This document shows, piece by piece, positions 468 to 4,647 of a stretch of DNA of 64,000 bases. A program made the translations under genes and the position numbers. The stretch comes from Thermodesulfovibrionales bacterium. Its GTDB lineage: Bacteria; Nitrospirota; Thermodesulfovibrionia; Thermodesulfovibrionales; SM23-35. The stretch is from NCBI GenBank assembly GCA_963715195.1, contig CAVQRT010000002.1, positions 1 through 64,000 of the forward strand. Reading direction: 5' to 3'. How positions within the stretch are numbered: the first letter of the stretch is position 1; every line of letters begins with the position of its first letter. Under the pieces are notes generated by a model, which was not told the DNA's origin, did not search any database, and saw only the letters and a program-made list of their open reading frames with translations.

Positions 468-542
468 GGGCGATTAGCTCAGCGGGAGAGCGCTTCCTTC
501 ACACGGAAGAGGTCGCTGGTTCGAGACCAGCATCGCCTACCA
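468..542 (+). tRNA. tRNA-Val (anticodon CAC)
   Basis: Acceptor stem GGGCGAT/ATCGCCT, anticodon arm CTTCC-TTCACAC-GGAAG, T-loop GGTTCGAGACC, encoded 3' CCA. Confidence 0.95.
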
Positions 543-3402: not shown

Positions 3403-4005
3403 ATGAAAAAAATATTTTTGTTTTTCCTAGTGGTATCATTGATAGTAATGTCCTCAGTAGCATATGGAGCAGAAAAAGCATTGCTCGGCAATGGCAATAT
3501 TGCACTGAAGTTAGATTATCTTAGTTTTACTGAAGATGTATTGGACGATATCGATACTGATGACGCTTTGTATATTGGGCTTGAGGCTTACAACAAAACA
3601 ATATCGAATTTATATGTGGGAATGGAAATCGGCTATGCGAGTTCTGATGGCAATGCAAGAATCGATGATGTTAAAGCAGATACAGAGCTAACCTTCGTAC
3701 CTATCGAGCTTAATCTCAAATATGCCTTGGATATTAATCCCCGGTTTGTTGTTGACTTCGGTGCAGGCGTCTCCTATAACTGGATGAAACTGGAATTTTC
3801 CAAATGGGGGGGCGTATCATCTCCAGGGGACGATTGGCTCTGGGGAGGGCAGTTCTTTGCGGCCCTAAATTATAAGATCGACCGGTTCTTCATAGGAATA
3901 AACGGTAAATATCAGCTCACAGAAAATTTTGAAATAGATGACTATGAGACTGATGTTAATGCCAATAACTGGAGAATCGGCGGACAGGCAGGAATAATGT
4001 TCTAA
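3403..4005 (+). CDS. Small outer-membrane beta-barrel protein
   Basis: Signal peptide, alternating aromatic/Gly strands, C-terminal Phe, AAGGAGG RBS. Confidence 0.8.
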   Translation: MKKIFLFFLVVSLIVMSSVAYGAEKALLGNGNIALKLDYLSFTEDVLDDIDTDDALYIGLEAYNKTISNLYVGMEIGYASSDGNARIDDVKADTELTFVPIELNLKYALDINPRFVVDFGAGVSYNWMKLEFSKWGGVSSPGDDWLWGGQFFAALNYKIDRFFIGINGKYQLTENFEIDDYETDVNANNWRIGGQAGIMF

Positions 4006-4066: not shown

Positions 4067-4113
4067 CATGACGAAATAAAATTCGTTTGCAAAACCCGGT
4101 CTTACTGAGGACG

Positions 4114-4144
4114 AATAAAACAAACCCCAGAAGAGGGATTCGCT
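4114..4144 (-). terminator. Terminator-like hairpin after the 14-aa peptide gene
   Basis: Minus strand AGCGAATCCC-TCTTCT-GGGGTTTGTT (10-bp stem with G-U pairs) followed by TTATT. Confidence 0.5.
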
Positions 4145-4150
4145 ATTTCT

Positions 4151-4195
4151 TTATTTCTTTTTACCGCCTTTGCCGCAACCACATTTCTTGCACAT
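4151..4195 (-). CDS. 14-aa Cys/Lys-rich micropeptide MCKKCGCGKGGKKK
   Basis: Perfect AAGGAGG 8 nt upstream of the ATG, its own promoter and terminator-like hairpin, CxxCGC motif. Confidence 0.6.
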   Translation of the reverse strand: MCKKCGCGKGGKKK

Positions 4196-4229
4196 GGATA
4201 GAACCTCCTTTATTTAGGATTGTGATTGT

Positions 4230-4258
4230 ATTTTACGGCAAATCGGTTTTGATTACAA
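4230..4258 (-). promoter_or_regulatory. sigma70-like promoter for the micropeptide gene
   Basis: Minus strand TTGTAA-N17-TAAAAT. Confidence 0.55.
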
Positions 4259-4488
4259 TATGCACGTAAACCATCATATTTAATAATTTGAATTCTCCTT
4301 TTCTATTGACATAACTCTTTCATTTTTATTAGTATTAAAGGTTTTTATTTCCTGGCATGCTTTACGCCTGCGCAAGCAGTACCAATCAATCAGGAAATGA
4401 CAGATAAGGGCAAGTGCGTGCCCGGGCCGGACGGATAAGGTATAAACCCTTTAACGTTTTGAATTTATAGCAGAAAGGAGGGATTGAG

Positions 4489-4647
4489 ATGGCAGAGAAA
4501 GGAAAGTCGAAGACCGATGTTGGATCACGCGCAGATGCAAAAAGCAGAATACAGCGCTGCAGCATCTGCGGGAACAAGGTCGAAATTGTTTTATCTGTTT
4601 CCTCTTCTGGCAAGAAGAGAATGAAACGGATGTGCTGTGAAGGATAA
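4489..4647 (+). CDS. 52-aa basic Cys-containing small protein (CxxC...CC)
   Basis: AAGGAGG RBS. Translation MAEKGKSKTDVGSRADAKSRIQRCSICGNKVEIVLSVSSSGKKRMKRMCCEG*. Below the ORF-track cutoff. Confidence 0.7.
   Translation: MAEKGKSKTDVGSRADAKSRIQRCSICGNKVEIVLSVSSSGKKRMKRMCCEG

Follow-up and report, generated by a model that had tools for sequence, protein, structure and literature searches.

Can an open reading frame (ORF) of 14 codons be a gene in its own right and, if so, what might its product do? The question is raised by a locus on the minus strand of the window, that is, the whole stretch of 64,000 nucleotides analysed here, which comes from the genome (G000) of a bacterium of the order Thermodesulfovibrionales. 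The first-pass annotation had read at this locus a promoter, the Shine-Dalgarno (SD) sequence AAGGAGG 8 nt before an ATG, a 14-codon ORF and a hairpin as one complete transcription unit, and direct reading of the sequence confirms this arrangement, which recurs at 60 loci. The whole unit, from the -35 to the T-tract, occupies 4258-4112 of the minus strand, and the features of the locus and its surroundings are the following:

4253..4258, minus strand: -35-like hexamer TTGTAA (sequence reading and consensus scan)
4230..4235, minus strand: -10 hexamer TAAAAT, with a 17-nt spacer to the -35 and 34 nt from its end to the ATG
4204..4210, minus strand: Shine-Dalgarno sequence AAGGAGG, with an 8-nt spacer to the ATG
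4151..4195, minus strand: 14-codon ORF plus stop, encoding MCKKCGCGKGGKKK (ATG 4195-4193, TAA stop 4153-4151)
4112..4144, minus strand: terminator-like hairpin (4144-4119) and T-rich tail (consensus scan and fold)
3403-4005, plus strand: gene of a 200-aa outer-membrane beta-barrel protein (OMP gene; PF13505, E 1e-9), convergent with the micro-gene
4489-4647, plus strand: gene of a 52-aa Cys-containing small protein, divergent from the micro-gene
468-539, plus strand: tRNA gene (Rfam)

The frame of the micro-gene reads ATG TGC AAG AAA TGT GGT TGC GGC AAA GGC GGT AAA AAG AAA TAA, and it is present in G000 as a single copy. In the consensus scan the promoter-like site scores 9 of 12 matches and the hairpin at 4144-4119 has 10 pairs, 4 of them G-C, with a loop of 6 and the tail TTATTCGTCC; the same hairpin forms in the fold of the 119-nt putative transcript, the z-score of the whole transcript (-1.36) being unremarkable. 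Terminator-like sites number 5 in the 2-kb region, compared with 1.8 +/- 1.4 in shuffled sequences, and promoter-like sites (6, compared with 5.2 +/- 2.7) are no commoner than in the shuffles, so that the signals alone are no proof of a gene. Rfam recognises no family at the micro-gene locus, its sole match in the window being the tRNA. The sequencing runs listed for the 2-kb stretch are DNA metagenomes of marine, estuary or other sediment, or of seawater, with no RNA run among them; the ORF is identical in contigs of 3 runs, with 6 variant sites at 4247-4336, these strains being few and too close to one another to serve as evidence. An inverted repeat, AATC...GATT, was spotted by eye between the -35 and the -10 of several loci (L021, L023 and L034, the last being window 4236-4252); its spacing is variable, and both an operator and an A/T-rich chance occurrence are possible.

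It is conservation, rather than these signals, that shows the locus to be a gene. In an unconstrained BLASTN search with a 751-nt query, 6 of 40 relatives gave a match to the stretch from the SD to the stop (77-88% identity), located elsewhere in the genome and on contigs otherwise unlike the query, and all six matches are 14-codon ORFs behind a strong SD. It had been proposed that selection on the peptide would be visible as Cys codons that are kept while synonymous sites vary, and this is the pattern seen: the Cys are unchanged in the six relatives, and differences between copies fall mainly at third positions. A degenerate pattern for MCKKCxCGK was found in 20 of the 57 genomes of the window's family, in exactly one copy each (18 ORFs of 14 codons and 2 of 16), and the reversed pattern, used as a control, had no match in these 57 genomes. 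A search of all 45 nt that tolerated up to 3 mismatches recovered the same 20 genomes with nothing intermediate added, and no copy without a Cys or a Lys surfaced in the 57 genomes at this tolerance. With the pattern anchored on the SD and residues 3-4 unspecified, one further, diverged member was found in G011, the 17-aa MCKKCGCGTTTKKKKKK; its promoter is arranged in the same way, and its terminator is strong. The homologous short ORFs that the first-pass annotation had proposed to look for in relatives are therefore present in a total of 21 of the 57 genomes of the family.

The substitutions among these copies are those of a translated sequence. Pairwise comparison of the 18 copies of 14 codons, 17 of which are unique at the nucleotide level, gives 585 synonymous versus 134 non-synonymous codon differences, and the nucleotide differences at codon positions 1, 2 and 3 number 90, 66 and 640, respectively; Lys, Cys and Gly codons all vary synonymously between copies. 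Coding identity is 0.86, compared with 0.33 and 0.30 in the ungapped flanks, and conservation ends at the SD on one side and at the stop codon on the other, the flanks being unalignable. Because the search pattern prescribed residues 1-5 and 7-9, their invariance rests only on the BLASTN relatives and the 3-mismatch search; residues 10-14 and the stop were free, yet they too are conserved, K12-K14 being unchanged in 18 of 18 copies, so that the constraint on the tail equals that on the head.

After pooling and dereplication, 60 unique loci encoding 13 distinct peptides were obtained, with the consensus MCKKC[GNSK]CG[KQT][GVAS][GSNDT]K3-6, in which residues 9-11 are small. Residue 6 is N, S or K in 40 of the 60, most members being CNC or CSC, and the family as a whole thus keeps only C-x-x-C-x-C-G. 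In all 60 loci the ORF ends after 14-17 codons and is followed by a hairpin; the downstream 70 nt fold at -12 kcal/mol or below in 54 of the 59 loci, the median z being -3.6. An SD-like purine block precedes the ORF in 58 of 58 loci having at least 20 nt upstream, and a sigma-70-like promoter, with TTGCAA, TTGAAA or TTGTAA 17-18 nt from the -10, was scored in 48 of the 55 loci whose upstream sequence is long enough. Among these 48 the -10 is TAAAAT in 32 and TAGAAT in 15, and its end lies 24-37 nt (median 29) from the ATG. The possibility, raised by the first-pass annotation against its own reading, that the ORF is what truncation has left of the 5' end of a longer CxxCGC protein is excluded by what the 60 loci have kept: the length, the stop, and a promoter and terminator of their own.

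The distribution of the micro-gene is narrow. The window's family belongs to the order Thermodesulfovibrionales and comprises sulfate-reducer-like sediment bacteria; among 301 genomes sampled across the order, the 20 matches all fell within this family, and none of 246 genomes of 12 sister families carried the micro-gene. When the looser pattern MCKKCxCG was searched in one genome per species, 185,579 species in all, 41 stretches were found. The micro-gene accounts for 18 of them, all in MAGs labelled as Nitrospirota, Thermodesulfovibrionales or 'Nitrospiraceae'; the remaining 23 lie in other phyla, have no SD, continue with unrelated residues and are about as many as expected by chance. A metagenome scan gave 117 stretches, among them 45 complete members of the micro-gene family and one that is cut off. 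These 23 stretches show what chance gives, and they bear on the view that there is no gene at the locus, only a chance ORF or the decayed 5' remnant of a hypB-like gene. The promoter-like match, which by itself stands at chance level in the region, speaks for that view; against it stand the 60 unique loci of the same length class with SD, promoter spacing and hairpin, the codon-wise pattern of substitution and the persistence across genera described below, and no flanks shared between loci were seen that would speak for copies of one mobile element. The absence of a gene is thus very improbable.

On a HypB tree of 30 genomes of the family, the presence of the micro-gene needs 2 changes, compared with a mean of 10 when presence is shuffled (0 of 500 shuffles were as low), which, for a single-gene tree covering part of the window's family, fits vertical inheritance. 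On the same tree the 14-aa form lies on one side and the 16-17-aa forms at the base of the other. The first-pass annotation had proposed to look for the ORF at syntenic positions in relatives, and it is so placed in G002, of the same genus, in which an identical peptide, encoded with 4 synonymous or stop-codon changes, lies beside the same OMP gene; the OMP genes of the two genomes are 69% identical in nucleotides and the micro-gene stretches 85%. In other genera the neighbours are different: the micro-gene has been kept in at least 10 genera in the absence of synteny, and a Pfam scan of 96 flanking ORFs at 19 loci detected no neighbour common to different genera, the genes met including those of an ADP-ribosylglycohydrolase, an M48 peptidase, PheT and Fur, PheS, Omp85, a RuBisCO-like protein, a bactofilin and PilZ. 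G003 has the end of the OMP gene, but the 230 nt that follow contain no micro-gene; in G001 both the OMP gene and the micro-gene are absent. Taken together, the third-position bias, the unalignable flanks and the differing neighbours point to a monocistronic translated micro-gene, neither leader peptide nor remnant, which, as read from sequence comparison, is a unit that has changed its place on the chromosome and taken its signals along; that the locus is a real translated gene is very probable.

The 52-aa protein encoded at 4489-4647 on the plus strand (MAEKGKSK...CSICGNK...MCCEG) has its own SD and terminator, and its stretch is matched in 19 of 40 relatives by BLASTN. It shows weak desulforedoxin/rubredoxin-like CxxC matches, both below the cut-off (Pfam E 0.009, NCBIfam E 0.034), and is probably a small metal-binding protein; it adjoins the micro-gene in the window's genome only.

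The same data bear on the proposal that the peptide is a by-product and that the function lies in its translation, as a sensor of Cys or Lys supply or through poly-lysine stalling, or in the RNA itself, as a regulatory small ORF or dual-function small RNA. Classical leader peptides are of the same size, 14 codons, and an A-rich Lys run lies at the end of the ORF beside the hairpin. However, a reading of the ORF tables places the next downstream gene in convergent orientation in 11 of 19 loci, and the same arrangement in the window leaves nothing to attenuate. A leader peptide or attenuator was considered for the window and rejected, as the OMP gene on the plus strand converges and no same-strand regulated gene lies behind the terminator. 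Moreover, conservation is frame-wise (640 of 796 nucleotide differences at third positions) and confined between SD and stop codon, Rfam is silent and the fold of the transcript is ordinary. The dual-function sRNA put forward by the first-pass annotation accordingly finds no support, and a regulatory role of this kind is improbable. A precursor of a modified or exported peptide (RiPP core, signal or antimicrobial) might be suspected in a product that is Cys-rich, very short and cationic, but there is no leader or signal sequence, there are no hydrophobic residues, and no modifying enzyme, transporter or immunity gene was found nearby in the 19 loci scanned, which makes such a precursor hardly credible.

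If the peptide itself is the product, its head is the natural starting point. The first-pass annotation had likened it to the N-terminal nickel site of HypB, and part of this likeness stands: in both, Cys2, Cys5 and Cys7 followed by Gly8 lie at the extreme N-terminus, the spacing M-C-x-x-C-x-C-G is identical, and the peptides of the window and of G002, which begin MCKKCGCG where E. coli HypB begins MCTTCGCG (PMC6848105), carry the full M-C-x-x-C-G-C motif at the very N-terminus. The likeness does not extend to the CGC of most members, in which residue 6 is N or S, nor to the rest of the protein, as the micro-peptide has no GTPase domain, His-rich linker or hyp neighbourhood, has its own promoter and terminator, and carries an oligolysine tail in place of the remainder of HypB. 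A peptide of 14 aa is too short for family scanners, and the comparison was therefore made with the five longer MCKKCGCG relatives described below, which match the model NF053667 (HypB_prefix_1) at model positions 1-23/28 with E values of 0.007-0.03 and 15.8-17.8 bits, below its curated cut-off of 30 bits; a genuine 270-aa HypB of the same phylum, starting MCVNCGCGKSNKG and used as a control, scores 21.6 bits and is also below the cut-off. A six-frame search of G000 with HypB_prefix_1 gave no match at E up to 10. There is likewise no linkage with nickel genes, since no hyp, nik, urease, coo or hydrogenase gene was detected among the 96 flanking ORFs of the 19 loci.

In E. coli HypB the CxxCGC site has been described as binding Ni(II) with picomolar affinity in a square-planar arrangement through the N-terminal amine and Cys2, Cys5 and Cys7, and short peptide copies of the head are stated to bind Ni and Zn (PMC12284835). 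A calorimetric study gives a Ka of about 1e6 per M for Cu binding by free HypB head peptides and, under its conditions, no isotherm with Ni or Zn (PMC6848105). The literature thus disagrees on whether free HypB head peptides favour Ni or Cu (PMC12284835, PMC6848105).

Prefix-bearing HypB proteins do exist in the same class and phylum, with the starts MCDVCGC, MCVECGCG and MCVNCGCGKSNKG; in other orders of the class they begin MCDVCGC... and occur in 7 of 121 genomes sampled, and HypB_prefix_1 was not found in the genomes of the window's own order within this class sample. In the window's family, none of the 30 HypB N-termini read has the prefix; these proteins begin directly with the GTPase domain, and their genes lie away from the micro-gene. 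A complementary distribution, in which the micro-gene would occur where HypB has no prefix, was examined and rejected as a rule: prefix-less HypB was read both in genomes with the micro-gene (13) and in genomes without it (17), and the own order has no HypB_prefix_1 in the class sample while its sister families (0 of 246 genomes) have no micro-gene. HypB is found in 50 of the 57 genomes of the family and the micro-gene in 21, so that most of the family manages without the latter. In the G000 assembly itself no HypA, HypB or HypD was detected, and HypB is present in the three remaining genomes of the genus; because G000 has hydrogenase genes, an assembly gap is likely, a real loss being also possible. 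Its nickel enzymes include a CO dehydrogenase (CODH) catalytic subunit (568 bits; C6:15781-17634) and two [NiFe]-hydrogenase large-subunit-like genes (C14, C3). A second precedent comes from CooT, the nickel chaperone of CO dehydrogenase, a small protein that binds Ni through Cys2 (PMC6006190). It is a small binder with a Cys2 ligand, as the micro-peptide would be, and G000 encodes a Ni-CODH; CooT is a folded 7-kDa beta protein, with one Ni per dimer, and sequence similarity to the micro-peptide is not expected.

From these elements a function can be proposed, in which a thiolate metal-binding head is joined to a polycationic tail in a small metal buffer or chaperone, a reading to which we give an even chance. 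Metal binding by the peptide, the identity of the metal, the partner of the tail and the cellular role are things that we infer only. Methionine aminopeptidase removes the initiator Met when Cys follows, and it should therefore expose Cys2 of the micro-peptide as the N-terminus, leaving the 13-residue peptide CKKCGCGKGGKKK. Together with the free N-terminal amine, the thiolates of Cys2, Cys5 and Cys7 would then bind a thiophilic metal at a single high-affinity site, as in E. coli HypB; Zn(II) or Cu(I) could also be bound by the same head. The invariant oligolysine tail, of 3 to 6 Lys, might keep the head soluble and dock it on polyanions, candidate partners being nucleic acid, the ribosome, polyphosphate or a membrane face. 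The peptide would in this way buffer or chaperone metal in the cytosol of an anaerobe with nickel enzymes whose family has a HypB without the prefix. Given the precedents of HypB and CooT and the nickel enzymes of the organism, nickel would be the best single guess for the bound metal, at most a tentative one. A bolder version, which is unlikely, would make the product a free-standing metallopeptide of 13 residues and the smallest known gene-encoded metallochaperone or buffer, which may supply in trans the Cys3/amine nickel site that the prefix-less HypB is missing, or supply nickel to CODH, its head being reused on phage histone-like tails and on other small proteins.

Metallothioneins are recognised by many Cys in CxC, CxxC and CC motifs that hold a metal-thiolate cluster within one chain. 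The micro-peptide is like them in its composition of Cys, Gly, Lys and Ser/Asn and in having CxC and CxxC motifs; assignment to this class was nevertheless rejected, as 3 Cys in 14 residues, with one CxxC overlapping one CxC, allow no metal-thiolate cluster within one chain, and the peptide is, as we take it, at least several-fold shorter than the smallest metallothioneins. A role as a thiolate metal buffer, by analogy with Cys-rich buffers, is plausible.

The head is not confined to the micro-gene. Phage and metagenome sequences encode MCKKCGCG peptides of 29-39 aa whose first 8 residues are identical to those of the micro-peptide and are followed by K-x-G-K-K and a Lys-rich tail; these tails, basic and rich in Lys, Ala and Pro, are 2-3 times longer than that of the micro-peptide and resemble histone H1 (AKK, SPKK-like). 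On a 43.9-kb viral contig, a 32-aa peptide with this head opens a run of small, very basic proteins. Searches for the nature of these relatives were negative: Pfam gave nothing for the five longer ones, PHROGs no match for three of them, the 32-aa phage peptide included, and the ESM Atlas only unnamed clusters for the 39-aa one (best score 0.86). A profile of the five retrieved 0 proteins at E up to 0.001 among 1.84 billion representatives, a threshold that a low-complexity profile of 32 positions can probably not reach.

In the marine phage L261 (2001-3023, minus strand) basic proteins of 32, 56, 86 and 93 aa are followed by a 72-aa ORF, the run being flanked by a collagen-like tail-fibre gene and the large terminase; its first protein starts MCKKCGCGKPGKK, and three of the others belong to PHROGs of unknown function. 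Two phage micro-ORFs with the same head were also seen, the 24-aa MCKKCGCGCSKPTCGGKCKKKKGK and the 15-aa MCKKCSCGCKTKKGR (on the viral contig L263 and in L264/L247), each with extra Cys and Lys and each behind an SD-like site.

These relatives matter for the main alternative to metal trafficking, according to which the product is a protamine-like micro-protein that binds polyanions, its oligolysine tail working on DNA, RNA or the ribosome and its Cys bridging peptides through shared metal or disulfides, or acting as a redox switch. The fixation of K12-K14 in 18 of 18 copies, the 5-6 Lys of the tail in other lineages, and the near-consensus promoter and SD, which suggest high expression, are in keeping with it. 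The occurrence of the MCKKCGCG head on 29-39-aa tails rich in Lys, Ala and Pro, and of the phage relative on the 43.9-kb contig, where it is one of four consecutive small, very basic proteins encoded between the tail-fibre and large terminase genes, favours nucleic-acid binding over nickel supply. On the other hand, 3-6 Lys would give only weak, non-specific binding, the N-terminal C-x-x-C-x-C-G spacing is far stricter than bridging requires, disulfides are disfavoured in the cytoplasm of a strict anaerobe, and 7 of the residues that the phage peptides share with the 14-aa family were fixed by the pattern, so that homology between the two is no more than putative. Overall, a protamine-like role is rather unlikely, if well short of improbable.

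Other small proteins share the head on a different body. Proteins of 54-62 aa beginning MCYTCGCG[KR]PDD... (119 clusters, all 'hypothetical' and without Pfam family) have the same N-terminal head as the micro-peptide and score 19.5 bits on HypB_prefix_1; they differ in being longer, with an acidic, probably helical body and no lysine tail, so that the likeness is that of an 8-residue head. In a sister family of the same order, proteins of 54-55 aa that start MCYTCGCG[KR]PDDSMGDPRNIT (L285 1359-1523, minus strand; L286 1510-1671, plus strand) are encoded directly behind a flavoprotein reductase-like gene, and L277 holds a 12-codon truncated copy of the MCYTCGCG protein. Another Nitrospirota genome (L287 1515-1742, plus strand) encodes a 76-aa protein starting MCYRCDCG directly downstream of a gene for an ArsR/SmtB-type (HTH_5) regulator, a layout typical of metal-responsive pairs.

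Genes this short escape standard annotation, and the suggestion of the first-pass annotation that this one had been missed by gene callers owing to its shortness is supported. To our knowledge, very few independent bacterial genes of fewer than 20 codons come with evidence of selection on the peptide, and no description of such a stand-alone gene was found in the literature outside subscription-only papers. A known metal-binding head here constitutes an autonomous gene of 14 codons, one of several unannotated small-protein families with this head. If the head binds nickel as that of HypB does, the metal-capturing tip of a metallochaperone can be a gene of its own, and there would be a way into the study of metal handling in sulfidic sediments, which are poor in Ni, Zn and Cu; if it is the tail that does the work, the peptide would be a minimal bacterial counterpart of protamine-like DNA/RNA binders, shared with phages. 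Either way, MCxxC.CG is a recurrent N-terminal head on several unannotated small-protein families, and, should the most far-reaching reading be true, micro-proteins headed by it would form an unrecognised and widespread class.
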